Assembly (NCBI GenBank): GCA_048886185.1
Contig: JBHLKY010000003.1
Span: 225,553-257,552 of the forward strand
From: Candidatus Hermodarchaeota archaeon
Lineage (GTDB): Archaea > Asgardarchaeota > Heimdallarchaeia > Hodarchaeales > Hodarchaeaceae
DNA length: 32,000 nt
Direction: 5' to 3'
In this document: one piece after another, positions 1,411 to 32,000 of the stretch
Layout of the letters: each line of letters starts with the position of its first letter
How positions within the stretch are numbered: position 1 is the first letter of the stretch
Notes under the pieces: model-generated
The model's database searches: none
Seen by the model: only the letters and a program-made list of their open reading frames with translations
What the model was told of the DNA's origin: nothing
Program-made: the position numbers and the translations under genes

Positions 1411-1511
1411 CTTTAGCTCCTCCTAATTTCTTTCAGAACTTACTTCCATAGTGATGAAATAAGGAATTATCATTAATAAATCAATTGATAGATGTAATTC
1501 TGAAACACAAC

Positions 1512-1620
1512 AAAAACAGACAGATATTAGGCCGATTTGCTCATCTAAGAAGATTGACACTCCTGAAGCCAAATGACGATAGGTACGCAAAATTTCCAAA
1601 CGGTTAACCCTTGCACGATC
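1512..1620 (+). repeat. Intergenic repeat copy R1 (degenerate, full length)
   Basis: cagatattaggccga...actcctgaagcc...tgacgatagg...aatttccaaacggttaaccc. Confidence 0.85.
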
Positions 1621-1670
1621 AGTAGGGGACTAATTATACTTATAAGATTACCTCATAAACAATGAAAGGC

Positions 1671-2417: not shown

Positions 2418-2520
2418 GATACAGATTCACTCATACAAGACACTACTGGCTCCTTACGCCATCTGATAATAATTCCATTGAATTTCCACAATTTTTGAGA
2501 AAATTAGCCGTGTACGATTA
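2418..2520 (+). repeat. Intergenic repeat copy R2 (degenerate)
   Basis: tacaagacactactggctccttacgccatctgata...gaatttccacaatttttgagaaaattagccgtgtacgatta; the terminal tta is the stop codon of the 2518-3168 gene. Confidence 0.75.
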
Positions 2521-3168
2521 GTGGTCTTTAGATTTATTTCGTCGTTTTAGCAGCACAAAGGAAGTACAGAGAAGAAGAAGAAACTGCCATCTAAGTGAAG
2601 AACTAGTCGTAATCGTGGCTAATTCAGTCGTGGTTGAGGTAAAACGTGAGGAAGTAGGTAATGGCCAGGTGGGGAGACTGTGAAAAAGACCCTGGGAACT
2701 GAATGAAGTCCAGAAAATACCCATGTTTACAGTTGTGATCTTTACATAAAATAGTCCATCATCTATGAAATTAGTGTTCGACGATCCGTTTATAAGAAAA
2801 GCGTGAGAGTTACCAGACAAGAGTGTGATAGAGGGGGATAAATCAATAATTACACGAGTATAATTCCAAGTTTGGCCATAGGAAGTGATTACCTGAGTAA
2901 TTTCAAGCTTGGTTAATTCAGTTGGGATCTCACCGTTATAATGGAGACGAAAAACTACTTGTCGAAAGGAAGGGATATCACCAGGACTAATAGTACCAGT
3001 ATAATTGGGGGGAATGGGTACTCCAATATCACACATAAAATCTAAATGGCCAACAACCTCTCCCTGAAATACTGAATCCGTACCAGTAACAGAACCAATG
3101 AAAAGTAAAAAAGTACAACTGAAAAGGCATATTTGGAGGAAAAAGAGTGGACGGGCTTCCATTTTCAT
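2518..3168 (-). CDS. Secreted, C-terminally anchored hypothetical protein (paralog of 25070-25690)
   Basis: N-terminal signal peptide, T/S-rich linker, TM segment and KRRNK tail; GAGGAG upstream; N-terminus nearly identical to 25070-25690. Confidence 0.85.
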   Translation of the reverse strand: MKMEARPLFFLQICLFSCTFLLFIGSVTGTDSVFQGEVVGHLDFMCDIGVPIPPNYTGTISPGDIPSFRQVVFRLHYNGEIPTELTKLEITQVITSYGQTWNYTRVIIDLSPSITLLSGNSHAFLINGSSNTNFIDDGLFYVKITTVNMGIFWTSFSSQGLFHSLPTWPLPTSSRFTSTTTELATITTSSSLRWQFLLLLCTSFVLLKRRNKSKDH

Positions 3169-3254
3169 TCACTCCTCACTCTAGGGATAATATCGGGGAA
3201 GAATTATATAAAATTTGTTATTCCCGAAAGAATTCCATTTCCCAAAAATAAATC

Positions 3255-3367
3255 AAAAGCCTACAGAGATTAGACCGAACCTGCTCTAACAGAAGCTACT
3301 AACTCCTTACAACCATCTGAGACAAGAAACATCTCAATTTTCACCTAGTCGCCATTATACGATTAAT
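3255..3367 (+). repeat. Intergenic repeat copy R3
   Basis: aaaagcctacagagattagaccgaac...gctctaacagaagctactaactcct...ccatctga; right half degenerate, ends atacgattaat. Confidence 0.85.
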
Positions 3368-4450: not shown

Positions 4451-4538
4451 ACACAGACCGAATGCTCTCTACTTGAAGCAAACGACTCCTGAAGTTATCT
4501 GACGAAAGGCCCACTTAATTTCCGCACGACTAGCCCTT
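4451..4538 (+). repeat. Intergenic repeat copy R4
   Basis: cagaccgaatgctctctacttgaagcaaacgactcctgaagttatctgacgaaaggcccacttaatttccgcacgactagccc; overlaps the TAG stop of 4530-6161. Confidence 0.9.
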
Positions 4539-6161
4539 ACGCCTTCGGATTACATTCACTAATGTCACTACAAATAATGTGATGACACCCATTTCAAAAA
4601 TCTGGAGAAAAAATTGCAGCAATGAGGGAAATCCTGGGGAGATGAAGTGAGAACCGCTCGATGAGCTGCATGAGGAAATCATTGCCTTGGTTGTAGTATT
4701 GATAAAGCCATTATCAGGTGTGGGTTGGATTGAAGAATGAGGAGACAAAATATTAGACGTAGGGTCTCCATTCTCAAATATAAAGATAGCTCCAGAGGTG
4801 GTTGCATACCAAAAGCCTTGAGTACAACTAGCATTGACTCGGATGAGATACTGAGTTCCATTCCCCACAGTGGTACTATCCCAGATATATGACGTTGTGC
4901 TGAGGTTTGCAATTAAGATGATCCAGGAGATGCCCTTATCTGTGGAATAGGAAACCAAATAAGTGATTGGATGACTATTTAAATCAGTTGCAGGAGTCCA
5001 TTGGAGTGTGATGTTCCCTGAAAAAATTGGTCCACCGCTAGGACTAATGATTACAGCAGGTAGGAGATGATAGGGAGTAACTAAAGGCGAAAGATCTGAA
5101 TTAGTTTCTATTCCTGGAATGGGATAAGGTTGATCAACAATCCCATCCATATTAGCATCAGGAGTGATCCAGTCATCCCAAAAGTTATCTGAAAAATGAT
5201 TATTTGAACCCTGGTCTGCCGTTTGGGATCCCCCCCTATTATTTCCTAAGAACATATTGGCTTGAATCTTGTTGTTATTACTTCTATGTGTAAGCTCCAC
5301 CCCATAATCACTGTTGTTGGCAAAATAGTTGCCAGAGAGAATATTTCTCGAAGATTGAAGGTAAATACCACTTCCACTGTTGTTAATGATCATGTTTCCA
5401 GACAGGATACCATATCCAGAACCATCTAGGTAAATACCAAGCTCATTATTGTTACTAATGGTATTTCCCGTCAACAGACAATATATACCAACTAGATCAA
5501 TTCCCCAATAATTATTGGAAACAAAGTTGTTGGATAAAGAGATACCCCTAGATTGAAGAATTTGAATACCCATTTCAGTGTTATTAGCGATAATGTTACT
5601 TGATAAATGAGTATTAACACAGAAACGAAGGACAATTCCTCTTCCATTGATATTAGCGATAGTATTATTAGACATACCGATATTTTCAGAGTAGCTAATA
5701 AAAATTCCAAAGCCGTGATTAATGACTATATTCGACAAAATGTATCCATTTGTAACATTCTGAAAATAAATACCATAATATCCGCCATTTAAAACACAAT
5801 TGCGGATTTGAAAATAAACATCAGTATTACTAATTTCTATCAATCTCCTGGTTGGGTAGCCAGTAATATTAAGACCATCAATGATGAACGGAGCTGACGG
5901 GGTTCCCTCTCCAGTCCAGTTCTCTTCTTCTATAAGAGTTTTGAACTCTTCATTTCCATTAATTGAGAGAGGTGAATGGATTACATGTTGAATTAAGACT
6001 GGAGTAGATGGTTGGTTATTATTTTTCCCAATGTTGATTCTTGAAGACCATCCAGAGGACATCACATTAATTGGACAGAGAAAAGAAATGAAAAACAGAA
6101 TCACTGAGATTTTGGTAAAAAACATTTTACTATGAATGAGCTGTTTTAACTCTAGGTACAA
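4530..6161 (-). CDS. Surface protein with NosD/CASH right-handed beta-helix repeats, Ig/FN3-like domain and C-terminal anchor
   Basis: Repeated NNxIxNN-GIxL units, SINGNEEF...GEGTPSAPFII, NFWDDW, TLQWTPATD...YLVSYS, TM segment with RRRKG tail. Confidence 0.88.
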   Translation of the reverse strand: MYLELKQLIHSKMFFTKISVILFFISFLCPINVMSSGWSSRINIGKNNNQPSTPVLIQHVIHSPLSINGNEEFKTLIEEENWTGEGTPSAPFIIDGLNITGYPTRRLIEISNTDVYFQIRNCVLNGGYYGIYFQNVTNGYILSNIVINHGFGIFISYSENIGMSNNTIANINGRGIVLRFCVNTHLSSNIIANNTEMGIQILQSRGISLSNNFVSNNYWGIDLVGIYCLLTGNTISNNNELGIYLDGSGYGILSGNMIINNSGSGIYLQSSRNILSGNYFANNSDYGVELTHRSNNNKIQANMFLGNNRGGSQTADQGSNNHFSDNFWDDWITPDANMDGIVDQPYPIPGIETNSDLSPLVTPYHLLPAVIISPSGGPIFSGNITLQWTPATDLNSHPITYLVSYSTDKGISWIILIANLSTTSYIWDSTTVGNGTQYLIRVNASCTQGFWYATTSGAIFIFENGDPTSNILSPHSSIQPTPDNGFINTTTKAMISSCSSSSGSHFISPGFPSLLQFFLQIFEMGVITLFVVTLVNVIRRRKG

Positions 6162-7077: not shown

Positions 7078-7264
7078 ATTTTCCCTTCTTTTATATATCC
7101 AACAAAATTCCCTTTTCGTAATTTAAGGTGCCTATTGTAATAAAAGATTATCTCGAGAATCTCTCAGAGTTTCTAGAAGATATTTCCTCGATTTTGAACT
7201 GGAGATAAGAAATTTCTAATTTTTTGTCGGAATTCCAACATTATTCCCTAAAATACAATCTTAT

Positions 7265-7376
7265 CAGACAGAAACCAAATCATTTCTGCTTTAATTGAAA
7301 TAAACGACTTATAAAGCCACCAGACGATAGCTTTTCTCATAAATCTTAATTTCCACAATTTTTAAGAAAATTAGCA
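7265..7376 (+). repeat. Intergenic repeat copy R5 (left half degenerate)
   Basis: aaacgacttataaagccaccagacgatagctt...tcttaatttccacaatttttaagaaaattagc. Confidence 0.85.
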
Positions 7377-7601
7377 CTTGAACTCAATGAACATTATTGT
7401 TTAGAGACATTTCGAAAGCGTTTCAGTATAGAGATTAAGACTAACACAACTAAAAGAGGGATGAATAAGCCTTTTATACTTGATAGGTCCTATTATCATA
7501 AACAATTACATCAGTTAGCTGAAACGAGACCCATAGGGAGACAGGACAACCAGAATCTGTTATTACAGCAGAATTATTGATGCCAAACATATCGAAATAG
7601 T

Positions 7602-8655: not shown

Positions 8656-9069
8656 ATGATCTTGGTTGATAGTACATTTTTAATTGATGCATTACGAAAA
8701 AAGCCCAATGTGCGAAAATTCCTACAAAAAAATCCAACAGAGATATTATTTACGACAGAAATAAATGTTTTTGAGTTATATCTAGGATTACATTCAAGTA
8801 AGATCCTAGAAAAAGAGGTAGCTCTTTTCGCAAAACGAAAACAACCTCTGGAAGAATTGATCACGAAATTCCAAGTACTCTCATTTAGAAGAGGGGAAGC
8901 AATAGAATCAGCAAAAATTCTAGGAAAACTGTATAGATCGGGGAAACCAATTGAGTTTCGTGATGGGCTAATTGCAGGGATAGCTATTGCAAATGGTATA
9001 AAGAAAGTACTGACAAGGAATACTGACCATTTTAGACGAATTAAAGAGATTGAAGTACTATCCTATTGA
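8656..9069 (+). CDS. vapC: PIN-domain VapC toxin
   Basis: ILVDSTFLID, EINVFEL, DGLIAGIA, TRNTDHF motifs. Confidence 0.93.
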   Translation: MILVDSTFLIDALRKKPNVRKFLQKNPTEILFTTEINVFELYLGLHSSKILEKEVALFAKRKQPLEELITKFQVLSFRRGEAIESAKILGKLYRSGKPIEFRDGLIAGIAIANGIKKVLTRNTDHFRRIKEIEVLSY

Positions 9070-9084
9070 AGACAAAAACACACT

Positions 9085-9186
9085 AAAAAGTGGACAGATG
9101 TTAGACCGAAGGCGCTCTAGCAGAAATAAAGGACTCTTTAAACTACCTGACGAAAGGTTCGCTTAATTTCCACACGGGGAGCCCTT
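9085..9186 (+). repeat. Intergenic repeat copy R6
   Basis: aaaaagtggacagatgttagaccgaaggcgctctagcagaa...ggactc...acctgacgaaaggttcgcttaatttccacacggggagccc. Confidence 0.9.
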
Positions 9187-9206
9187 GGAGCAGCTAAAAA
9201 AGGATA

Positions 9207-10246: not shown

Positions 10247-10426
10247 ACAATAGTTATCAGTTTGAAATAATTGATTATAATTATAAGTGATTACTGCTGA
10301 AAAAAAGTGAAAAAAAGATAAAATCTAGTAAAAAAACACCTATTGTATTTTCCCCAAACCTCCATAAAATATGATTAGCAATGAAGGAAACACGTGAATT
10401 TAATAATTTACCCGAAAAAAAGACAT

Positions 10427-10495
10427 AAAGCGTACAGATATTAGACCGAAAGCGCTCTCAGAGAAGCTAACGACTCCTGAAGCCACCTGACGATA
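10427..10495 (+). repeat. Intergenic repeat copy R7 (well-conserved left two-thirds, truncated on the right)
   Basis: aaagcgtacagatattagaccgaaagcgctctcagagaagctaacgactcctgaagccacctgacgata, then unrelated sequence. Confidence 0.95.
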
Positions 10496-10497
10496 AA

Positions 10498-10887
10498 AAG
10501 TGTAAGAACTCAGGATTAGTTGTTGCTATCTGTTTCATGATTTTGTTATTAAATTTTTCTTTCAATCTTTCATTCGTGATTTTCTGGTTAATTCTCTTGG
10601 GAACAGCATTCGATTTTTCGATGACCGAAGTGCCTGTCCTTCTCACACAAGTGGCATCAGACTCCAATGGAACGGTTTTATCACTAAAACAAGCTGTAAA
10701 TGCGGGAGCTTTAGCAATTGATTCCACTTTGAGCGGAATTATCTGGATTAGCTTCGGATATGGAATACATGGTCTATTATTTGCGATAATAGCGTTTACA
10801 GGGGCTTTGATTGGTTATTTCAATATTAGAATTGTTCCAGAGAACGAACTTAAGCCTTTAAATGCTGTAATACCAAAAATTCTTTGA
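10498..10887 (+). pseudogene. Probable 5'-truncated fragment of an MFS-type transporter (last ~3 TM helices)
   Basis: Hydrophobic helices with a TQVASDSNGTVLSLKQAVNAGALAIDSTLSGIIWISFGY pattern resembling MFS TM10-12; the frame starts right after truncated R7. Confidence 0.5.
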
Positions 10888-17555: not shown

Positions 17556-18122
17556 ATGGCCTTAAAACCTCCAAGCAGACACGTCAAGACGATCCGTGAG
17601 CTGATTTATTGGTATTATGCAGACTTGATCGCACGGGCAGCAGGCTTTGAGGGACAATATGGGTTTGTAATGTCGCGATACAAAAAATTGAAAATGGGAG
17701 AAATAAAATGGGCATCATCCATCCGAGACAAACAAAAAGAATGGGAAAAGGGGCAGGTGTGTGTCTATTGTGAAGCAACTGAAACTGTGACACACGACCA
17801 TATCATCCCCGCCTCAAGAGCTGGGGTGGATCCACGGGTGAAAAGCCTTCTGGAGTCAGCAGATAACTGCGTATGGGCGTGTAAATCCTGCAATAGTAGC
17901 AAAGGGGCTCGTGACATCTTTGAATGGTACGGAGAGGAGAAGATCAATGATATTCCGCGATTAGTGTTATCCAAATTTCTTAAGTTGGCATACCGACTGC
18001 ATGAAACCCAGGGAACGCTAGATTTACAAGACCTAGATATGGACGGGATGTTGAACATCTACGATTTAGGAGTGGTCATCACACACCTGATTGCGAAACT
18101 CTCAAGGCAATCGAGTGGTTAG
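17556..18122 (+). CDS. HNH endonuclease
   Basis: CVYC...THDHIIP...DNCVWACKSCNSSKG. Confidence 0.9.
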   Translation: MALKPPSRHVKTIRELIYWYYADLIARAAGFEGQYGFVMSRYKKLKMGEIKWASSIRDKQKEWEKGQVCVYCEATETVTHDHIIPASRAGVDPRVKSLLESADNCVWACKSCNSSKGARDIFEWYGEEKINDIPRLVLSKFLKLAYRLHETQGTLDLQDLDMDGMLNIYDLGVVITHLIAKLSRQSSG

Positions 18123-18545: not shown

Positions 18546-18581
18546 AAACACGGTAATAATTTTACTTCTCTAAAAATAAAC

Positions 18582-18670
18582 AAAGAGCATACAGATCTCA
18601 GACCGAAAGCACTCTAAGAGAAGCTGCTGACTCCTGAAGTTCAGTGTGATTAATGATAGAAAGCTTCAAT
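18582..18670 (+). repeat. Intergenic repeat copy R8a (left half canonical, right part divergent)
   Basis: aaagagcatacagatctcagaccgaaagcactctaagagaagctgctgactcctgaag, then ...gatagaaagcttcaat. Confidence 0.9.
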
Positions 18671-18864
18671 ATAAATCACTTGAATTTTTCAGATCACTAA
18701 GAAGAATGAAACAGTGAAAGTTCAATTTTACCGATATATGGCGTTTTACACCGATCCTGACTGTTTCTACATACATGAAGGTTGAAATAATCTTTACTAG
18801 GATGGAACTCCTTTCTATATTTACGAAAACAAATGTTTATATTTACAGATGTATACAACAATAT

Positions 18865-19149
18865 ATGCTGATTAAAGTGAATGAAACGATTACTTCAAGA
18901 TTAGAAAAGGAAGATATCGATTTATTAGATAAATTTATTCAAATGGGTCTTTTTGCAAATCGTAGCGAGGCTGTAAGAGTTATTATGTCAAAGGAACTGA
19001 AAAAAATAGCAAAAAAGCAGCTGAAAAGCGAAATACAAAGGACTTTAGAAATGAAACCTCTCTTAACAGAGCAAGAATTACTAGCAATTGGAAATCGATT
19101 ATTTCCTTCCTCTGTAGCATCTCATGTAGCTGAAGGGCGAGAGAGATGA
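18865..19149 (+). CDS. Ribbon-helix-helix (CopG-like) antitoxin
   Basis: TITSRLEKEDIDLLDKFIQMGLFANRSEAVR RHH pattern; ATG at 18865 preferred over the ORF-track start 18775; ATGA overlap with the PIN gene. Confidence 0.82.
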   Translation: MLIKVNETITSRLEKEDIDLLDKFIQMGLFANRSEAVRVIMSKELKKIAKKQLKSEIQRTLEMKPLLTEQELLAIGNRLFPSSVASHVAEGRER

Positions 19150-19685
19150 AACGAGTATATATAGATACGAGTGTCCTTCTCGCTAAGTGGATTCCAACCG
19201 ATCTTTTTCATGAAGAAAGTAAAAAAATTGTTGAAGCAGTAAAAACCGAAAGAATTAGAGGAATCGTTTCAGGACTAGGTCTAGCAGAAGCATCCTCTGT
19301 TGTTGAAAGACAACAGGGCAAATTTGCACCGGATCTGGCGCCAGAAATCTCGTTAAGTGCAGAATATCTCAAAAGAATTGTAATGATTCCGCATTTAGAG
19401 ATCCTAGATATTGTTTATCCAATTCAGATGGTAATCGCAGGGTCACAATTGGAATTATCCCTGATCTATTGGCAATCGCTAGATCTCGCCCCAAAATTCC
19501 ATCTGAAAACATTAGACAATCTACATCTAGCCATAAGTGTTCTTAGTGACAAATTGAAAGGGAGACCAATTGATTATTTTGTCACAGGAGACCATGAAAT
19601 TGTCTCGAATGCTCATCAAATTAAAACCGAATGTGGCTTTTCGAGCATGTTTCCTGATCAATTGGTTACATTAGAGGGGTTATGA
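19146..19685 (+). CDS. vapC: PIN-domain VapC toxin
   Basis: VYIDTSVLL, LAEASSV, KTLDNLHLA, FVTGDHE. Confidence 0.9.
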   Translation: MKRVYIDTSVLLAKWIPTDLFHEESKKIVEAVKTERIRGIVSGLGLAEASSVVERQQGKFAPDLAPEISLSAEYLKRIVMIPHLEILDIVYPIQMVIAGSQLELSLIYWQSLDLAPKFHLKTLDNLHLAISVLSDKLKGRPIDYFVTGDHEIVSNAHQIKTECGFSSMFPDQLVTLEGL

Positions 19686-19686
19686 A

Positions 19687-19748
19687 ACTCCTAGAGCCAC
19701 CTAACGATAGATTTTGTGGAAAAGCTTAAGTTCCACACGGTTAGCCCT
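19687..19748 (+). repeat. Intergenic repeat copy R8b (right half only, abuts the vapC stop)
   Basis: actcctagagccacctaacgatag...gcttaagttccacacggttagccc. Confidence 0.88.
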
Positions 19749-19934
19749 CAAGAAAAATCCCCGCAATAGTCTTCATATCTGTGAAGTGAACCATATAAAA
19801 CGGAAGACCACGATCTTCAACAAACTGCTGATCTTCCTCCGCGGAAATGATCTCAGAGGTGAAAATCAATCCAACAACCACAATTGATCCTGTGGGAATG
19901 GATGAATTACACTTGCAGGTGGTTGAATACCACT

Positions 19935-21185
19935 TCAGTTAAAAGTAGATTCTTTGTTATATTGGACTAGCTTATGGAGAATAATAGCATATCCAGTAAG
20001 GGAAATAGTTTGGCAGATTCCGATAGAGAAATTCAATGAAAGATTTGGACATACCACTAGAAATAGTAGGATAAGTTTCCTGGTTCTGGAAAATGTACTA
20101 TTTAGAGAAAAATCCCTTAAGATAAGTACTGAAATAGAAAGGGTAGGAAAAACAGGTAGTAAATGAAGTATTGGAGGAACAAGTGGTTCATCAAATCCAA
20201 TCAGAAAGAAGATATAGATGATTATTAAGAAGAACCAAAGTACTTTATGTTCAATAAATCGAACTCTCTTAGGAAGAAATATTACTTCATTTACCTTATT
20301 ATCATTCCACTTGATCCATTTTTTTTGCTTAGAAAAATAAATTACAAGATGAGCAGCTATAAAATAGAAAAAAAACCAAAAAATGAGGTATAAAGCAAAG
20401 AAAAATAGCGTAAAATAGTAGTACGGATTTGGTGTCAGATAATTTGGGAATTCATAAAAGAAGAAGCTTTTAAAAGCGATAACTATTAGTTCCAAGGGAG
20501 AACTTGGCTGTTCCTTGTGGTAAGACCAATTTGGTTTAACAATATTTAGAAATAGAAGATTACATTCAGACAGGAAAAAAAATGTCGTTAAATTTAATAT
20601 CAGAAAGGAGGGTAATCCCAGAATGAACGAATTGGAGGGGAGAAATCTTTTCTGATGATGGAGAAGGTACAAAACAAAAAAGACAAAGGGAACTCCAAAC
20701 ACCAAAAAAGTCATCATTAATACGAATAAATTCTCTAAAATCTCATTATTTTTGGCAAAATTGATGAAATCGTAAGTGAAAACGGCCATAACCAGTACCA
20801 AAACCCCAACAGCATAGAAAATAACGAGGAAATTCCTATGCGAAAGAAATTCATTCCACACCTCCTGTATGGTTTTGCTTCCTTCTGCGTAGTCAACATC
20901 AGGAAGAGGAGATAAACTAAATGTCAGTTCTTCGCTCTCTAAAGTCTCCAGAAGAGAATAAATACGAGCACCCGCCTCTGATAGATAATAATCACCATTC
21001 TCAGCTTTATGGATCAAGGGAGAAAGTTTATCTAGATGAAAGGAAAATTTTCCAGTAGATTCAAGCTTTAATCTTTTAAGCATGTCTGAATAGGAGAGGG
21101 GCTCCACGAAGAGAATTTGAAGGATTTTAATGCGAATAGGATGATTGATAAGCTGAACAATTTTTGCTATTTCATGAGATCTCAT
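19935..21185 (-). CDS. ArsR-like winged HTH fused to a multi-pass membrane domain
   Basis: INHPIRIKILQIL..EPLSYSDMLKRL...TGKFSFHLDKL.PLI.K...GDYYLS, followed by several TM helices. Confidence 0.85.
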   Translation of the reverse strand: MRSHEIAKIVQLINHPIRIKILQILFVEPLSYSDMLKRLKLESTGKFSFHLDKLSPLIHKAENGDYYLSEAGARIYSLLETLESEELTFSLSPLPDVDYAEGSKTIQEVWNEFLSHRNFLVIFYAVGVLVLVMAVFTYDFINFAKNNEILENLFVLMMTFLVFGVPFVFFVLYLLHHQKRFLPSNSFILGLPSFLILNLTTFFFLSECNLLFLNIVKPNWSYHKEQPSSPLELIVIAFKSFFFYEFPNYLTPNPYYYFTLFFFALYLIFWFFFYFIAAHLVIYFSKQKKWIKWNDNKVNEVIFLPKRVRFIEHKVLWFFLIIIYIFFLIGFDEPLVPPILHLLPVFPTLSISVLILRDFSLNSTFSRTRKLILLFLVVCPNLSLNFSIGICQTISLTGYAIILHKLVQYNKESTFN

Positions 21186-22579
21186 GATGTACTGAACTCC
21201 CTCACAGGTTCTATTAGTTTCTTGAACAAAATTAAGAAACCAGTTAGACCAAGTATTTGAATTAGGATAATCAATAATTTTGATATGAGTAGTATAGGGG
21301 TTGTTATTTCGAATAATACATTCATGAACAAGATAGAGTCACCAATTATCAACAAAAGAAAGACCGTGGGTTCAATTACAATGAGGATTACTAAAAGAAA
21401 AGTAAGTTTCTTTTGATTCTTGAGTCGAGTAAAGTTTATCAAGAGAATTACGATACAAATCACCATAGTGGGCAAAATGGGCACAAAATGGATGTAAGAG
21501 GGGATGAATGAGCCATCTGGAGGAAGGAAAAACTCAAGTTGACGTTGTGTGGAGGCATCAAAGATCCAAGGTGAGGAAAAAATTATGATGAAAAAGTATA
21601 GTGTTATCAGACTTAACCAGAATCTCTTATCTTCCAAGATCTGGAGTTTTCTTGGAAAAAAGATTGGCTCTGTAGATAAAGAAGAGGACCACTTCCACCC
21701 CACTAGAGGGGATATGAGATACAAGAATATTATCAGAATAATGCTAATCATAAGCCAAAAGAAAGCTCTATCCAAATGTAAATAATAGGTATTTTGAGGA
21801 TAGAGAAATTCATTAAACAGAATAGTTTTGAGATACCCCCAAAATATCTCAGGAAGAGTACCAGCAAAATAAAACCATTCCTCTTTCTCCCAGTGTCCTG
21901 TTTGAGGATTAAATTGATAATACTCTTCTGGAAGAGCGAGAATTGCATTAATGAAATAATGCGTTTGATCTAAGAAGGATAAAAACGCAGAATAAAGTAA
22001 AATAAAGGAAATCATCCCAGATATTAGATAAGAAAAGGATTTATGGTAAATTCTACAAAAGAAAATAAAATGAACAAAAAATCCGACAAGAAAGAAGAAA
22101 AACACAAGAGAAAATGGATTTGTAAAGGATTCAAAAAATAAAAATGTGTTATCTTGTCCCAAAGTTCGGAAAAGCTGATATAATCCACCGAGGACGAACA
22201 GTACCCCTATGTAATGATAAAATACGCTTGGTGGCCTTTTAACAAACTGTAGAAAACGCTCACGGAGAGGTAGGGCACCCACTTCTTTGCGGCCTATCAC
22301 GGGCAATAAATCGTCTATAACCTCATCATTCTCAATAGATACTAAAAATGAATGAGATATGTGTCCCTCTGACGATAAAATATAATTTCCATCCCCATTT
22401 TTGGTGATAAGCGGGCCTAACGTATCTAAATGAAATGAAAGCCTGCTTGTCGATTCTAATGAGAGATATTTCAATAAATCCGAGAAAGATCTAGGAGCAG
22501 CATAGAGTAATCTGATAATGGTAATTCTAAGAGGGTGAGACACATAGCTTAGAAATTTCGCTGTACTAATAGATTTCAT
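21182..22579 (-). CDS. ArsR-like winged HTH fused to a multi-pass membrane domain (tandem paralog)
   Basis: SHPLRITIIRLL...SFSDLLKYL...SRLSFHLDTL.PLITK..DGNYILS; GAGGTG upstream; 4-bp overlap with the next gene. Confidence 0.85.
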   Translation of the reverse strand: MKSISTAKFLSYVSHPLRITIIRLLYAAPRSFSDLLKYLSLESTSRLSFHLDTLGPLITKNGDGNYILSSEGHISHSFLVSIENDEVIDDLLPVIGRKEVGALPLRERFLQFVKRPPSVFYHYIGVLFVLGGLYQLFRTLGQDNTFLFFESFTNPFSLVFFFFLVGFFVHFIFFCRIYHKSFSYLISGMISFILLYSAFLSFLDQTHYFINAILALPEEYYQFNPQTGHWEKEEWFYFAGTLPEIFWGYLKTILFNEFLYPQNTYYLHLDRAFFWLMISIILIIFLYLISPLVGWKWSSSLSTEPIFFPRKLQILEDKRFWLSLITLYFFIIIFSSPWIFDASTQRQLEFFLPPDGSFIPSYIHFVPILPTMVICIVILLINFTRLKNQKKLTFLLVILIVIEPTVFLLLIIGDSILFMNVLFEITTPILLISKLLIILIQILGLTGFLILFKKLIEPVREFSTS

Positions 22580-23046
22580 AAGACCACACCTCTTTTAAGC
22601 ACCCATTGCCTTAAAATCATTTTGACAAATTTCTTAGGTCAGGAAAAATAGATAACACAAAGAACAGAAAGTATTAACCTTTTGTAATACAGTTATTGAA
22701 TCCCTTCCTCGGCGCACTAACTCTTGAGGTCAAATATTATGACTTCAAAGGGGAGAAAGCTGCAAAAGAAACCCCTGCATTAAATTTGGTGTCATCCTTG
22801 CTAACTTTGATTACTCTCTTTATATTACATCAGAGACGATCAAATTTCAAAACAAAATGAGTATAACAACATTCGCAAAAACATTCAATGAATTGCTAGA
22901 GAAAAGGATGATGTAACTTTCTGTCTAGTTTTGAATCTGTTATCTGCCGATGAACGAGTTTAATTGAATCAGAGAGGCGATTGTACGCTTTTTTCTCTCT
23001 AAGCCATCGAATAATACTATTGCTTACTTCTAATAGATCAAATCCT

Positions 23047-24228
23047 TTATTTGGTACGGCGTTTCTTCACGAGGGGAACAAGAGTAAATATGAAAGTAAT
23101 CATAATTACGCTAAAACCGAATCCTGACCCAGATGAAACATCTGACCCATTACTGAACATGAGCCAGGTGGTGGCGTTTGCAGAATAACCAAGGGTGTCA
23201 ACAATTTCAAAGGTCCATGTGGAGTTTCCTGAAGTGGGAGTCAAGAAAAAACTCCATTCAGTTCGGAAAGTATCATTGGTCTCATAGAGAGAACCATTCT
23301 GATAAAGGTTGTAATGGTCAAAGTGATTATCGATTCCCTCAAAAATAATTTCCACAGGGTCACTGGAATCAACAATTTGACCCGGAGGAGCAGAAACGGT
23401 TGGATAACCGTCATCAATCAAGCCAGCTAAATTAGTAATTCTACGAGAGTAATCATAGTAGAGATTATCCTCAATACTGTATTGAATATTTCCCTTCACA
23501 TAGAGACCACTCGTTTTTTCATATTCAAAACGACTAGTAAATTCCGTGTACCCTTCAGGGATAGTATTACGCTCAAGAACCCAGGTTTCATAACCTTGGA
23601 GCACATTCTCGCCACTAACGGTGAAATTTTCATCGACAATTTGACCAATTTCCCAATCCGTCACATTGACATCGAAAACATTGGTGAGACTCCCAACCGC
23701 CCCAAAACTAGAGGCAAAGTCCCACGTGTAACTATATACTTCAGAACTATCATAGAACGCGAGCAGGATGACATGCGTTGCCCCATACGGATTTTGGGCC
23801 AGGACCCGCTCGCCTGTGTATTTGTTAACATTTCGAGTGAGGCGAAACGAAAAAGTTGAAGCATTTTCATCAGCCAGTTCGTAAAAGTCGTCATCCAGAA
23901 ATTTAACGCCATAATGAGTAGGAAAGTAGGTGACAGAAGCCCGCTTTTGGTAGGCATCATTGATAGACAAAGTGTAATCTTTCTCAAATTTCACAATAGA
24001 ACTGGAAAGAGAAGTCACCAAAACTTCTTCAGTAATACTGTAATCAATGACCCATTCAATGCCAAAGGGGTCACTAACCGCCTCATTAAGAAAAAATGTA
24101 TTTTCTTCCAATACTATAGTGCCATCAGGGATGAGAAATAACTCTGAATTGGCACCAACTGACAAAGGATGGAAATTTTGAACAGAAAACATAATACACA
24201 AGCATAATACGATTTTTATTACCCTCAC
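23047..24228 (-). CDS. Secreted hypothetical protein with C-terminal Ig-like domain and anchor
   Basis: Signal peptide, YNLYQNG...WTFEIVDTLG Ig-like segment, SGSGFGF-TM-KKRR. Confidence 0.85.
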   Translation of the reverse strand: MRVIKIVLCLCIMFSVQNFHPLSVGANSELFLIPDGTIVLEENTFFLNEAVSDPFGIEWVIDYSITEEVLVTSLSSSIVKFEKDYTLSINDAYQKRASVTYFPTHYGVKFLDDDFYELADENASTFSFRLTRNVNKYTGERVLAQNPYGATHVILLAFYDSSEVYSYTWDFASSFGAVGSLTNVFDVNVTDWEIGQIVDENFTVSGENVLQGYETWVLERNTIPEGYTEFTSRFEYEKTSGLYVKGNIQYSIEDNLYYDYSRRITNLAGLIDDGYPTVSAPPGQIVDSSDPVEIIFEGIDNHFDHYNLYQNGSLYETNDTFRTEWSFFLTPTSGNSTWTFEIVDTLGYSANATTWLMFSNGSDVSSGSGFGFSVIMITFIFTLVPLVKKRRTK

Positions 24229-24290
24229 ACATCATACCTCTAGTTAATAGTGAATGGAATATCTAAATATCAAAGCAATCATCATAAAAA
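24170..24290. repeat. Segment duplicated at ~31860-31962 (gene start and upstream region of 23047-24228)
   Basis: acataatacacaagca.aatacgatttttattaccctcacac...gtgaatggaatatctaaa.tatca.agcaatcatcataaaaa present at both sites. Confidence 0.9.
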
Positions 24291-24393
24291 GCTTTGGATC
24301 GGGTTTCTTAGGAGTTGAAAACGAGAAGATGCAGGATTACACATTAGTCTTTCCTCCTTAAATAGAGAACAATAGCCATGGCTTATAACCAAT

Positions 24394-24843
24394 TTATTCC
24401 CACCATTCCTTCACAACCTTCAAATGAAATGAAATCGATGGGGTAGGTGCAAGTGGGTTAAATTCATCCGCTCTAAACTCGAATCGATAAGTACCATTAT
24501 GGGAAACCGAATATTCCTTGTAGCCGTTGTCTTCCACTAATACTCCCACTGAAACTGCACTTGTAGCTACTTGAGTAAAATACATTCGCATTTTACAATC
24601 TGTGACATCGTTAAAATTCGTAATAGTAGCGGTAACTTTATCATTCGTGTTAAAAAACCACCAATCAGTCCAATACGCATTAATCAAACCATTTCCAGCA
24701 ACCTCCATATCCCCATCAAATAAATCTTTTTGACGAAGTTTTGGTTCTGATTCTGGTGAGGTACACCCACTCAAAAATACAATAAGGCAAAATACCAGCG
24801 GTATAGAAATTTTAGTCAAGAAATTTTTTATATTTCTACTCAA
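24394..24843 (-). CDS. Putative lipoprotein
   Basis: Basic N-terminus, hydrophobic stretch and LSGC lipobox-like motif; TTG start with GAGGTG upstream. Confidence 0.7.
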   Translation of the reverse strand: MSRNIKNFLTKISIPLVFCLIVFLSGCTSPESEPKLRQKDLFDGDMEVAGNGLINAYWTDWWFFNTNDKVTATITNFNDVTDCKMRMYFTQVATSAVSVGVLVEDNGYKEYSVSHNGTYRFEFRADEFNPLAPTPSISFHLKVVKEWWE

Positions 24844-25000
24844 AATTTACTCACCTCTTAGAGAATATCTTCAAATCTAGAATTCTCATCAATCCTCGAT
24901 TGATGTGAAACTTTAACTTACTAACCTTTTTAAATCTAATGAATTAAATCATCATATTCATCAAAGTAGTTCTAAAGAGATTGTAGTTTTCCTGAACTTT

Positions 25001-25072
25001 AACAGTGAGCGAATCTGCTTTATGAGAAGCTAACGACTCCTGAAGCTACTTGATGATAGTTCCGCTTAATTA
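25001..25072 (+). repeat. Intergenic repeat copy R9 (truncated on the right by a gene stop)
   Basis: tatgagaagctaacgactcctgaagctacttgatgatagttccgcttaattaa. Confidence 0.88.
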
Positions 25073-25690
25073 ATTCAACTTATTTCTAGTCCGTTGTCTT
25101 GAAAGTAAAATGAAAACACAGAAGAGAGGAAAAAAATACAACCATCTAGGAAAGGAGTTAGTAGCATTAATAGAGGGAGAAGTGGTTAATGGCCAGTCTG
25201 GGAGACTCTTGGAAATACCCTCTGAGCTGAAGGAAGGCCAATAAATGCCCAGATTAGCCGTCGTGATCTTGACATGAAACAGCCCACCCTCAATGAAATA
25301 AGGGGAGCCAGTAACTTGGAAGGTAGCAGAACCACCAGACACGAGTGTAAGGGGGGAAAAGAAATCAACACTCCCATGAGAATAATTCCAAGTTTGGCTG
25401 AAAGCCGTGATTTCCTGAGTAACATCAAGATGAGTAATTTCAACGGGTATCTCCCCACTAAAACCGAGGCGAAAAATCACAGTGTCATAGCCAGCGACAT
25501 CATAGTGCTGATAGCTAATAGTGTAATTAGTGTAATTGGGAGGTGACACTCCTGCAATCCCGAAATCACCAAGATGGCCAAGAACCTCTCCCTGAAATAC
25601 TGAATCCGAACCAGTAACAGAACCAATGAAAAGAAATAAAGTATAACTGAAAAGGCATATTTGAAAGAATAAGATTGGACGGGCCTCCAT
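25070..25690 (-). CDS. Secreted, C-terminally anchored hypothetical protein (paralog of 2518-3168)
   Basis: MEARP.F F.QICLFS.T..LFIGSVTG.DSVFQGEV.GHL shared with the paralog; TM segment and basic tail. Confidence 0.85.
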   Translation of the reverse strand: MEARPILFFQICLFSYTLFLFIGSVTGSDSVFQGEVLGHLGDFGIAGVSPPNYTNYTISYQHYDVAGYDTVIFRLGFSGEIPVEITHLDVTQEITAFSQTWNYSHGSVDFFSPLTLVSGGSATFQVTGSPYFIEGGLFHVKITTANLGIYWPSFSSEGISKSLPDWPLTTSPSINATNSFPRWLYFFPLFCVFILLSRQRTRNKLN

Positions 25691-25783
25691 TTTCGTTCAC
25701 TCCTCACTCTAGGGAGAATATCTGGAAAGAATGATATAAAATTTGTTATTCTTGAAAGAATTCCATTCCCCGAAAAATAATAC

Positions 25784-25905
25784 AAAAGCGTACAGAGATT
25801 AAACCGGGAGCGCTCTATGAGAAGTTAACGACTCCTAAAGCCATCTGACGATAGGTTCGCTGAATTTCCACAATTTTTTAAAAAAATTAGCCCTGGTGCG
25901 ATTAA
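25784..25905 (+). repeat. Intergenic repeat copy R10 (most complete)
   Basis: aaaagcgtacagagattaaaccgggagcgctctatgagaagttaacgactcctaaagccatctgacgataggttcgctgaatttccacaattttttaaaaaaattagccctggtgcgatta. Confidence 0.95.
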
Positions 25906-25928
25906 TGCCAATCACCATTTTCCCTAGA

Positions 25929-26474
25929 TTAAATTTTAATATTTTTGCGAAGTAATCCCAATACTTGGAGGGAAAGTAAATATTCTCTAATTTGCTCTTC
26001 TTTATTTTCTTTCAGAATCGCTCTTCCAAGCTGGATAAATATCGTCAGCGAGTCAAGGATTACAGATGCCTTCACAATTTTATTATTTTTAAAATGAAAA
26101 AGAAATGCCATGTCATACTTAACCCGATTTCCTGTAGGTGGAATCCCAATAAAGTACCCCTTATGGGTTCCTTCAAATGGGCCATAAAGCCAAACTTTAT
26201 CCTTTTCAGCCACAATCTCTTGTATTGAATATTTTAAATCAGGAAAAGCAATCAAACCTTCTTGAAATAGTGATTTGACTGCTTTTATCCCCCTTCTCTC
26301 TGGTTCTTCACGATAGGGGAGATTTTTCCATACGACATTAGGATCAAAGCAATTATCAAATAACGCTAAATTATTACTATTATAAGCTTCTACCACCATT
26401 CTCGCGATTCGTTTATTTTCTTCCTTAGACATCTTAAGAAAACTCCAAAACGTGAATTGATCAAATCTAGACAT
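25929..26474 (-). CDS. SnoaL-like ester cyclase (NTF2-like fold)
   Basis: EENKRIARMVVEAYN, AFPDLKYSIQEIVAEKDKV, GTHKGYFIGIPPTGNRV, FKNNKIV. Confidence 0.92.
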   Translation of the reverse strand: MSRFDQFTFWSFLKMSKEENKRIARMVVEAYNSNNLALFDNCFDPNVVWKNLPYREEPERRGIKAVKSLFQEGLIAFPDLKYSIQEIVAEKDKVWLYGPFEGTHKGYFIGIPPTGNRVKYDMAFLFHFKNNKIVKASVILDSLTIFIQLGRAILKENKEEQIREYLLSLQVLGLLRKNIKI

Positions 26475-26545
26475 TAACTCCTAAAAAGATTTTGGGGAAA
26501 AGGGGAAGGATAGATCAATTTACAAAAATACTCCGAAAACAGACC

Positions 26546-26642
26546 AAAAGCGTACAGAGATTAGACCGAAAGCGCTCTACAAGAAGCTCCTGACTCCTGA
26601 AGCCACCAGCCGATAGCTTTACTAAAAAATTTTAATTTCCAT
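26546..26642 (+). repeat. Intergenic repeat copy R11
   Basis: aaaagcgtacagagattagaccgaaagcgctctacaagaagctcctgactcctgaagccaccagccgatag...tttaatttcca. Confidence 0.95.
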
Positions 26643-26717
26643 ACCATCAAAGGATGAAGATAACGAAATCATAACACTTATAATACTCGGTGTAAAAGTA
26701 CTACCAGGTATAATGCA

Positions 26718-26996
26718 ATGTCAACAGTGAAATTTACAGAGACAGAGAAATTAAAACAACTTCAAGCCCGGATATACCTCTTAACCAATCAACAGGTAAC
26801 TCAACAGGAAATATTAGAGTACGCGGTAAATATCCTTACTGATAATATAGATCTGCTGGTTGAAAGGTTACAAGCAGGATCAAAAATTTTCACACCCGAA
26901 GAAATCAAAAAAATTCGAGCAAAGGCATCTCATTGGGGAGAGGATACCAAAGAGCTCTCAAGTACAATTGATGAAACACTTTATGGAAAGTCATGA
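26718..26996 (+). CDS. Putative antitoxin
   Basis: Small protein ending STIDETLYG, a typical VapB-like C-terminus; ATGA overlap with the PIN gene. Confidence 0.75.
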   Translation: MSTVKFTETEKLKQLQARIYLLTNQQVTQQEILEYAVNILTDNIDLLVERLQAGSKIFTPEEIKKIRAKASHWGEDTKELSSTIDETLYGKS

Positions 26997-27415
26997 AGAT
27001 GGCCATTTTAATAGATACGGGTTTTTTCGTCGCTCTCGCTAATAAAGATGACAATAATCATGACCGAACCAATAAGCTGCTAGAGGATTTGGTGACAGGA
27101 AAATGGGGAGCACGAATCACAACCGATTATATCTTGGATGAAGCAATCACCGTGACATGGGCTCGAACAAAGAATAAAGCACTAGTGAAAGAGGTATACG
27201 ACCTCTTTCTGGGATCAGAAGCAATTTGTATAGTACAACCGATTCCTCACGAAATACTCGGGGAAATATGGGCGATATTTCAACAATATTGTACACCAAA
27301 AAGACCACTGAGCTTTACCGACTGTTCACTCCTAACCTACGCAAAGAAAAAGGGGATCGATTATCTCTTGAGCTTTGATAAGGAATTTGATGGACTAGTC
27401 AGTAGGATTCATTGA
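26993..27415 (+). CDS. vapC: PIN-domain VapC toxin
   Basis: ILIDTGFF, TDYILDEA, LSFTDCSL, LSFDKEF. Confidence 0.93.
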   Translation: MKMAILIDTGFFVALANKDDNNHDRTNKLLEDLVTGKWGARITTDYILDEAITVTWARTKNKALVKEVYDLFLGSEAICIVQPIPHEILGEIWAIFQQYCTPKRPLSFTDCSLLTYAKKKGIDYLLSFDKEFDGLVSRIH

Positions 27416-27462
27416 ACTAATCAAAGAATTACTCACTCATTTCTCAATCCTCAAAAATCGCA

Positions 27463-27550
27463 AAAAGCGTACAGAGTTGAGACCGACACCGCTCTCAGAG
27501 AAGCTCCTGACTCCTGAAGCTCAGTGTGATTAATGATAGAAAGCTTTAAT
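27463..27550 (+). repeat. Intergenic repeat copy R12a (same type as R8a)
   Basis: aaaaagcgtacagagttgagaccgacaccgctctcagagaagctcctgactcctgaagctcag...gatagaaagctttaat. Confidence 0.92.
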
Positions 27551-27805
27551 ATAAATCACTTGAATATTTCAGATCACTGAGAAGAATGGAACAATGAAAG
27601 TTCAATTTTACCGATATATGGCGTTTTACATCGATCCTGACTGTTTCTGCATACATAAAGGTTGAAATAATTTTTACTAGGATGGAACTCCTTTCTATGT
27701 TTACGAAAACAAATGTTTATCAAATTAAAACCGAATGTGGCTTTTCGAGCATGTTTCCTGATCAATTGGTTACATTAGAGGGGTTATGAAACTCCTAGAG
27801 CCACC
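27510..27805 (+). pseudogene. Internally deleted second copy of the 18630-19701 RHH-vapC module
   Basis: 27521-27720 matches 18641-18840 (about 10 substitutions) and 27721-27805 is identical to 19617-19701 (vapC 3' end); 18841-19616 is missing. Confidence 0.95.
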
Positions 27806-27845
27806 AAACGATAGGTTTCCCAAAAAATCTTAATTTCCACAAATT
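27791..27845 (+). repeat. Intergenic repeat copy R12b (right half)
   Basis: actcctagagccaccaaacgatagg...tcttaatttccacaaatttt. Confidence 0.88.
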
Positions 27846-27919
27846 TTATTTCATTATATTCTTGGTAATTCTGCTTTATAAAGCCAATTACTGACGATAA
27901 GACTAGTTTCCTATTTGGA

Positions 27920-31859: not shown

Positions 31860-31992
31860 AACATAATACACAAGCACAATACGATTTTTATTACCCTCAC
31901 ACTTCATACCTTTAATTGAAAGTGAATGGAATATCTAAAATATCAGAGCAATCATCATAAAAATTCTCGATTGATGTGAAACTTTAACTTAC
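31860..31992 (-). pseudogene. Remnant: first ~13 codons plus upstream region of a second copy of the 23047-24228 gene, joined to sequence matching 24881-24922
   Basis: MRVIKIVLCLCIM then a stop within ~15 codons; ctcgattgatgtgaaactttaacttact shared with 24895-24922. Confidence 0.8.
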
Positions 31993-32000
31993 TGGTCTTT

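Follow-up and report, generated by a model that had tools for sequence, protein, structure and literature searches.

The window analysed in this study, a stretch of 32,000 nt, is the final 32 kb of contig C3 of a genome assembly (G000; 4.84 Mb, 75 contigs, ~35% G+C) of Candidatus Hermodarchaeota archaeon, an Asgard archaeon. It contains 14 copies of a repeat of ~140 nt, all on the plus strand, separated by genes in both orientations, and two sites at which a small toxin-antitoxin (TA) module, or its remnant, lies between the halves of such a repeat: site A (module 18640-19701) and site B (relic 27520-27805). We identified the repeat as an orphan copy of the 3' trailer of an rRNA operon, and showed that the homology between the two sites is confined to the module and the short core of the repeat. 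In the interpretation that we consider probable, the window carries a trailer-derived cassette array, located downstream of the rRNA operon and recombining within the repeat core, and the module is a non-autonomous cassette which entered this array twice as a circle.

The repeats were found with nhmmer, using a profile hidden Markov model (HMM) built on the G000 copies, to which all copies were aligned; positions in this profile are given below as HMM coordinates. Each full copy consists of a left (L) arm, a conserved core and a right (R) arm. In G000 the family occupies C3:218-253 kb and the 11.7-kb contig C46, with only weak single matches elsewhere (C7 and C71). Arrays of the same family were detected in 12 of 21 genomes of the genus; the relatives referred to individually are G003, G008, G010, G011, G012 and G014, and loci in relatives are denoted L013, L014, L016 and L020. 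Altogether, 115 copies from eight genomes were counted and 106 of them aligned. We found no description of rRNA-trailer cassette arrays in the literature; the present analysis adds a joint defined at the nucleotide level, a core variant borne by the module, and arms with separate histories.

The duplicated module and its joints

The original prediction was that 27510-27805 is a second copy of an RHH-vapC unit (ribbon-helix-helix antitoxin and VapC toxin) at 18630-19701. The duplication itself was confirmed, with limits at 18640-19701 and 27520-27805: segment 18581-18840 corresponds to 27461-27720 (260 nt, 92% identity, E 1e-103), as does 19608-19737 to 27712-27841 (130 nt, 92%), and the 4.84-Mb assembly holds these two copies and no third. 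The view that the second copy is also an RHH-vapC module was not borne out. Site B corresponds to site A minus 776 bp (18841-19616), with a 2-nt AT microhomology at the joint; what it retains is a 201-nt non-coding leader and the final 69 nt of vapC, while the whole antitoxin gene and most of the PIN-domain toxin gene are gone. To judge from its sequence, copy B is a dead deletion relic rather than a TA module. The two relic blocks (18640-18840 and 19617-19701 in the numbering of site A) have diverged unequally from copy A: 11 of 201 positions differ in the left block (94.5% identity) and none of 101 in the right block plus core.

At the left end of the module, the distal part of the L arm (18575-18611) differs between A and B at 12 of 37 positions (68% identity; 70% over HMM 30-62), which does not exceed the background of the family (62 +/- 11%), and the L arm of site B most closely resembles that of the adjacent repeat at 26515, rather than that of site A. 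The adjoining stretch 18612-18639 (HMM 63-90) matches at 26 of 28 positions, but other copies match each of the two sites equally well, and the homology specific to this pair therefore begins only at the right edge of the core, between 18639 and 18640. At the right end, the 16-nt core copy AACTCCTAGAGCCACC (19686-19701) is identical in A and B. Beyond it the R arms, of the short "ACGG" type in A and the long "AATTTT" type in B, are 53% identical, i.e. at background level, and each has its best matches among other repeat copies. The predicted limits, namely a left one inside the repeat and a right one after gccacc followed by different right halves, were thus both recovered, and the arms outside the module remain at the background.

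These limits bear on one rival explanation, an ordinary segmental duplication or an assembly artefact in which the repeat plays no part. The fragmentation of this metagenome-assembled genome (MAG) and the repeated DNA at the end of the contig could be taken as signs of such an origin. We regard it as scarcely credible, considering that the homology breaks off within the repeat on either side and the flanks are no more alike than the background, that the copies differ by 11 substitutions and the 776-bp deletion, and that both forms occur in independent Logan contigs of four sequencing runs. These runs belong to one sediment study, probably the source of the DNA of the window; forms A and B are present there at similar depth, and an 87-nt stretch shared by them has approximately twice that depth.

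The repeats are truly split at both sites, because the ends of the module (its first 60 and last 110 nt) resemble repeat arms no better than shuffled sequences do (p = 0.35 and 0.52, respectively); the idea that they are decayed arms was rejected on the same grounds. Each site can accordingly be read as L arm plus core, module, core plus R arm. The two cores of a site are not equivalent: at both sites the left-hand one has the local consensus TGAAG and the right-hand one has TAGAG, a variant present in no other of the 106 aligned copies. Its restriction to the two copies of the module indicates that the right-hand core travels with the module. With a module-borne right core and a left core of local consensus, a circle and a single crossover constitute the simplest history, and the sequences fit a Campbell-type crossover at about the boundary between ACTCCTGAAG and CCACC.

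The course of events may then be envisaged as follows. The array would have grown, and would still be reshuffled, by recombination inside trailer copies, with the processing-stem core GAAGCT...GACTCCTGAAGCCACC as the hotspot. The RHH-PIN module (18640-19701) would be a non-autonomous cassette with a short core copy, ACTCCTAGAG, at one end, mobilised by a recombinase acting in trans. A circle joined as ...ACTCCTAGAG-TTCAGTG... would cross over once with the ACTCCTGAAG-CCACC stretch of a trailer copy and produce L arm plus core, module, and core plus R arm. This would have occurred at two different repeats, and the copy at 27520-27805 would later have lost 776 bp by illegitimate deletion. The identity of the repeat, the limits of homology, the module-linked core variant and the unlinked arms are established by the sequences, while we infer the circular intermediate and the trans-acting site-specific recombinase.

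Direct repetition of the 10-nt stretch ACTCCTGAAG on both sides of the module, at both sites, could also reflect a transposon-like insertion into the repeat with a 10-bp target-site duplication. Such an event should leave identical copies, whereas the left TGAAG and right TAGAG differ at both sites, so that the same change would have been needed twice. Moreover, the module lacks terminal inverted repeats as well as a transposase, and half-repeats elsewhere overlap to a variable extent, by ~10 to ~24 nt. We therefore consider a target-site duplication very improbable.

The two genes of site A are arranged as is typical of vapBC loci, with a small upstream gene overlapping the PIN-domain gene by 4 nt. 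Acidic PIN residues (D7, E48, D124 and D149, by eye) are present in the predicted toxin, as in type II VapBC systems, from which site A differs in its weak antitoxin assignment (RHH_8, E 0.02) and site B in holding no genes. A homologue of the toxin (67% identity) accompanied by the same antitoxin was found in a MAG of the same genus. For the module as a whole, only one homologue was found elsewhere in the genus, in G011; it is 70% identical and has no detectable repeat of this type around it.

A second, unrelated vapBC-like pair (26718-27415) lies between the 26515 repeat and site B. In G010 this pair is 83% identical and is also located between half-repeats. Its L arm in G010 belongs to the G000 type rather than to that genome's own type, suggesting that cassettes move between species along with an arm. 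The G010 repeat that follows the pair (L016:19776-19941) is a mosaic, composed of an L-arm start, an R-arm fragment and then an L arm, core and R arm; it looks like the product of nested recombination events. The G010 sequence consists of contigs joined by runs of 100 N, and the ends of its array are not visible.

The repeat as a copy of the 23S rRNA 3' trailer

Read on the minus strand, the repeat consists of the final ~25 nt of the gene for 23S rRNA, then the 3' strand of the 23S processing stem, followed by an oligo-T terminator; in the orientation of the window it is thus the reverse complement of the end of the gene and its trailer. Its origin was revealed by relatives of G000. To the right of some of their repeats there is a conserved sequence of ~300 nt with a sharp end, which Rfam identifies as the 3' end of the archaeal large subunit rRNA on the minus strand. 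At the end of contig C8 of G008, the last repeat of an array of more than 50 kb borders directly on a 23S gene (Rfam model positions 2545-2987, minus strand), which is truncated by the end of the contig, and contig C9 of the same genome carries a 16S gene and the 5' half of a 23S gene in the same orientation. A G000 repeat matches the 23S terminus of G008 at 27 of 28 nt (96%). Adjacency of the array to a 23S gene, which is seen in G008, presumably holds for G000 as well. A search of whole genomes with RF02540 found 23S only in G008, and an Rfam scan of the window gave no family at E <= 1.

Archaeal pre-rRNA is processed at a helix formed by leader and trailer, with a bulge-helix-bulge motif (reviewed in PMC8339473). 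The 5' leader of the 23S gene co-folds with the trailer at -81 kcal/mol, and HMM ~71-110 of the repeat constitutes one strand of this stem; the conserved core of the repeat is therefore the counterpart of the 3' strand of the leader-trailer helix. Viewed in the sense of the rRNA, the L arm consists at its distal end of oligo-U tracts resembling archaeal terminators. Unlike a genuine processing stem, an orphan copy lacks a nearby leader with which to pair and cannot act in rRNA maturation; here such copies mark joints in DNA.

Some repeats are followed by copies of the 23S 3' end of ~330 nt (L014:18938-19264, L013:12760-13069, L014:11368-11670 and L020:257-566). Such fragments were found in 19 of 22 genomes of the genus, up to 13 per genome, with 73-96% identity. 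Nearly all share the inner end ...CAACACGT (Rfam model position ~2721, ~30 nt before the sarcin-ricin loop), which looks like a second fixed joint, placed inside the 23S gene. The 23S sequence at the end of C8 (L014:19290-19620) has ~380 nt in excess of the Rfam model between positions 2545 and 2720, probably an rRNA intron.

Islands built up behind structural RNA genes are, together with integrons, the closest parallel. Tandem accretion at the 3' ends of tRNA genes, termed "gene capture", was reportedly described in archaea by She and co-workers in 2001. The likeness lies in direct repeats that copy the 3' part of a structural RNA gene, in cargo stacked unit after unit behind that gene, and in the many units which have lost, or never had, an integrase. 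In the tycheposon islands of Prochlorococcus, integrated elements and their cargo accumulate in tandem at tRNA and tmRNA gene 3' ends (bioRxiv 10.1101/2020.12.28.424599). The arrays described here differ in their target, which is the 3' end of 23S with its processing-stem trailer, in the length of the repeats (~140 nt, sometimes with ~330 nt of 23S in addition), in the units, which are often single genes, and in that no integrase was found in any array.

The co-oriented repeats between small, unrelated and swappable units of one or two genes also recall integrons, in whose chromosomal forms TA cassettes are typical. Integrons and clusters of attC sites lacking integron integrases (CALINs) have been reported in Archaea (Ghaly et al. 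2022, PMC9668308), and the same study found integrons, mostly without an integrase, to be enriched in Asgard MAGs. If the array were a classical integron or an integrase-less attC cluster, the repeat would be an attC site, folding as single-stranded DNA, with the R' box as the place of cleavage by IntI. When the two strands were folded singly, the results were no better than those of shuffled sequences (z from -1.5 to +1.0; 8+12 strand/copy combinations), and mutual information over the 106 copies showed no long-range covariation or complementary pairs; an attC-like hairpin was rejected on this basis. The apparent R' box is the 23S 3' terminus, and the joints of the module fall between HMM positions 90 and 91, ~35 nt from the GTTAGCC-like box and not between G and TTRRRY. 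In addition, genes occur in both orientations and neither an adjoining integrase nor attI was seen. With neither hairpin nor covariation, and with joints in mid-site instead of at the R'-like box, the tests made exclude a classical integron, and we give this explanation very little chance. Of the proposal that the repeat is a recombination site, the part that stands is the hotspot in the core: the repeat is not a dedicated site of unknown origin but is derived from rRNA flanking sequence. Searches based on attC may call such arrays integrons without an integrase.

Small modules lacking a recombinase, often TA pairs bounded by short sites, are also known from Acinetobacter plasmids (Xer-dependent dif modules) and from integrative mobile elements exploiting Xer (IMEX), which depend on the host recombinase in trans. 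The module studied here resembles these and would likewise be moved in trans, but dif-like inverted arms flanking a 6-bp spacer are missing from its core, and the sites are co-oriented.

Joints in other arrays and the possible agent of recombination

The core also serves as a joint elsewhere in the genus. The 115 copies include 73 full, 16 left-only and 24 right-only repeats; the left-only copies mostly end at HMM 81-95 and the right-only ones mostly start at HMM 68-82, so that half-repeats overlap at HMM ~71-95. Inspection revealed unrelated DNA right up to the core in at least five independent right halves and at least six independent left halves. The pairwise identities of L and R arms are uncorrelated (r = -0.07, n = 1524; 106 copies from eight genomes), whereas sub-segments within an arm correlate at r = 0.22-0.37; the value for L arm and core is 0.31 and that for core and R arm 0.05. 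The two arms thus have unlinked histories, with linkage breaking at about HMM 80-105. The expectation that breakpoints of other cassettes would cluster at the same position of the repeat is borne out in part by the overlap of half-repeats. Other borders coincide with the 23S terminus of the repeat or with a constant position within 23S, or have no repeat beside them, so that the core, though a hotspot, is only one of the joints.

Several observations weigh against the interpretation that we favour. The rRNA genes are unassembled in G000, and adjacency to 23S is demonstrated in G008 only; a canonical bulge-helix-bulge motif could not be placed in the leader-trailer co-fold, which is a long interrupted helix. 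The cluster of right-only copies starting at HMM 71 is partly an alignment effect, as several of them keep degenerate L arms and the profile was built on G000 copies. Some borders lie outside the core, as stated above. No gene for a tyrosine recombinase, serine recombinase or IS110-type enzyme (PF00589, PF00239 and PF01548) was found on any array contig searched in G000 and up to eight relatives, and a crossover bias at the most conserved block needs no dedicated enzyme.

This last argument leads to the main rival, recombination by the ordinary machinery of the cell. Diverged trailer copies might recombine by homologous or short-homology routes (loop-out of a circle, Campbell re-entry, gene conversion after breaks), with joints piling up in the core because it is the longest near-identical stretch. 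Indeed, the core with the adjoining block (HMM 81-104) is the longest series of alignment columns with mostly >90% conservation, no array holds a recombinase gene, some borders coincide with further conserved blocks, the 23S terminus among them, and the ~330-nt 23S fragments would offer ample homology. On the other hand, the module has only 10-16 nt in common with its target on one side and no recognisable similarity to it on the other, which is very short for homologous recombination, yet the same joint arose twice, and the flanking arms show no signs of co-conversion. We consider this explanation rather unlikely, though much less so than those discussed above. Of the proposal that modules move as units by crossover in the repeat, the localisation is supported, both ends lying in the stretch CTCCTGAAG-CCACC, and three independent tests agree on this zone: the module-borne core marker, the overlapping half-repeats and the unlinked arms. 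As regards the agent, no recombinase was found and short-homology recombination could give the same clustering.

The search for such an agent gave three PF00589 matches in G000, on C4, C27 and C70, none of them near the array, and none on array contigs of eight relatives, whose assemblies are fragmented. Two were examined as candidates and rejected, as no repeat adjoins them: C27:43051-43944, a second tyrosine recombinase conserved in the genus, and a truncated gene on the 3.6-kb contig C70. The module itself has neither a recombinase nor a transposase, and Pfam scans of the upstream genes and the commonest array protein clusters identified cargo only and no element-encoded integrase. An HNH endonuclease gene (188 aa; 17556-18122) is present inside the array, two genes ahead of site A. 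The G008 array contains a counterpart (82% DNA identity) with different neighbours; the product of the gene is a possible candidate for a DNA-cutting protein. Neither an empty site nor the circle joint (...TTATGAAACTCCTAGAG-TTCAGTGTG...) was found in the Logan contigs of the four runs, which is uninformative either way, since such contigs drop rare variants. Two joints in these contigs (25059>27822 and 18103>25884) were disregarded, their sides being shorter than 30 nt.

For the cassette interpretation, the exchange is narrowed to about 10-16 nt of the processing-stem core, the incoming DNA having brought its own copy of the core. The duplicated module thereby offers a rare view of one joint at the nucleotide level, and a defined sequence with which to seek the presumed enzyme and to screen sequencing reads for excised circles. 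More broadly, and as a tentative proposal, orphan rRNA-trailer copies might be the working sites of a cassette-capture system behind the 23S gene: an archaeal counterpart of the integron, using the DNA of the pre-rRNA processing stem as its site and an unrecognised recombinase in trans, widespread in Asgard and other archaea, and carrying eukaryote-like genes (small GTPases) between species. Gene flow in Asgard archaea bears on the assembly of the eukaryotic gene set, and few of their mechanisms of gene capture are known.

Cargo and further features of the array

The arrays consist of swappable accessory genes, in which small GTPases are the largest family, accompanied by surface proteins and by TA and defence pairs. 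In the Pfam scans mentioned above, the cargo was identified as small GTPases, beta-helix proteins, lipases, TPR proteins, and TA and MNT-HEPN pairs. The largest cluster comprises 24 Ras/Roc-like small GTPases from six genomes (G000, G003, G008, G010, G012 and G014), whose arrays frequently encode RagA/Gtr1-like GTPases and beta-helix (NosD-like) surface proteins as well. Ras-family GTPase genes adjoin the window. The coordinates of the repeats and of the components of both sites are given in Table 1.

Table 1. Repeat copies, module components and TA genes in the window
Coordinates	Strand	Feature	Evidence or remark
1481-1621	+	Full repeat copy	nhmmer
2386-2520, 3227-3365, 4455-4539, 7241-7382	+	Further repeat copies	nhmmer
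9057-9189	+	Full repeat copy	nhmmer, E 2e-27
10395-10526	+	Full repeat copy	nhmmer, E 1.5e-28
18556-18639	+	Left half-repeat of site A, L arm and core, ending ...GACTCCTGAAG, HMM 7-90	nhmmer; match stops at core, DNA beyond not R-arm-like
18640-18864	+	Non-coding leader of module, 225 nt; 18640-18840 retained in B	A/B alignment; no Pfam or Rfam match
18865-19149	+	Antitoxin candidate, 94 aa, ribbon-helix-helix-like; 4-nt overlap with toxin start	Weak RHH_8, E 0.02, under Pfam cut-off
19146-19685	+	PIN-domain toxin (VapC-like), 179 aa	PIN_3, 28.0 bits (cut-off 27); PIN, E 4.5e-4
19686-19701	+	Module-borne core copy AACTCCTAGAGCCACC, HMM 80-95, TAGAG variant	Identical at 27790-27805
19702-19749	+	R arm of site A, short type, ending ...CACGGTTAGCCC, reverse complement of start of 23S 3' terminus	nhmmer; tail equals 23S 3' end in G008
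25008-25079	+	Partial repeat copy, HMM 53-124	nhmmer, E 4e-13
25756-25904	+	Full repeat copy including TTAGCCC... 23S-end part	nhmmer, E 5e-33
26515-26638	+	Full repeat copy, orphan rRNA trailer	nhmmer, E 1e-28
26718-27415	+	Unrelated second vapBC-like pair (92 aa and 140-aa PIN)	PIN, E 1.1e-12
27439-27519	+	Left half-repeat of site B, L arm and core, HMM 10-92	nhmmer
27520-27720	+	Relic left block (equals 18640-18840)	94.5% identical to A
27721-27805	+	Relic right block, corresponding to 19617-19701 (final 69 nt of vapC and core); deletion joint between 27720 and 27721	85/85 nt identical to A
27806-27848	+	R arm of site B, long type	nhmmer, repeat family D5; 24/30 match to R arm of 26515 repeat

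Two further duplications were noticed in the window. The minus-strand genes 2518-3168 and 25070-25690 are paralogues encoding secreted or membrane proteins (~74% DNA identity), each situated just ahead of a repeat; they are too diverged for limits of homology to be placed. The last 140 nt of the contig (31860-32000) duplicate the 5' flank of the gene 23047-24228 (24188-24929), where the copy holds a 602-bp insert with a gene for a 149-aa protein (24394-24843). The insert-free form, corresponding to the second locus (31860-32000), is present in the Logan contigs of all four runs.

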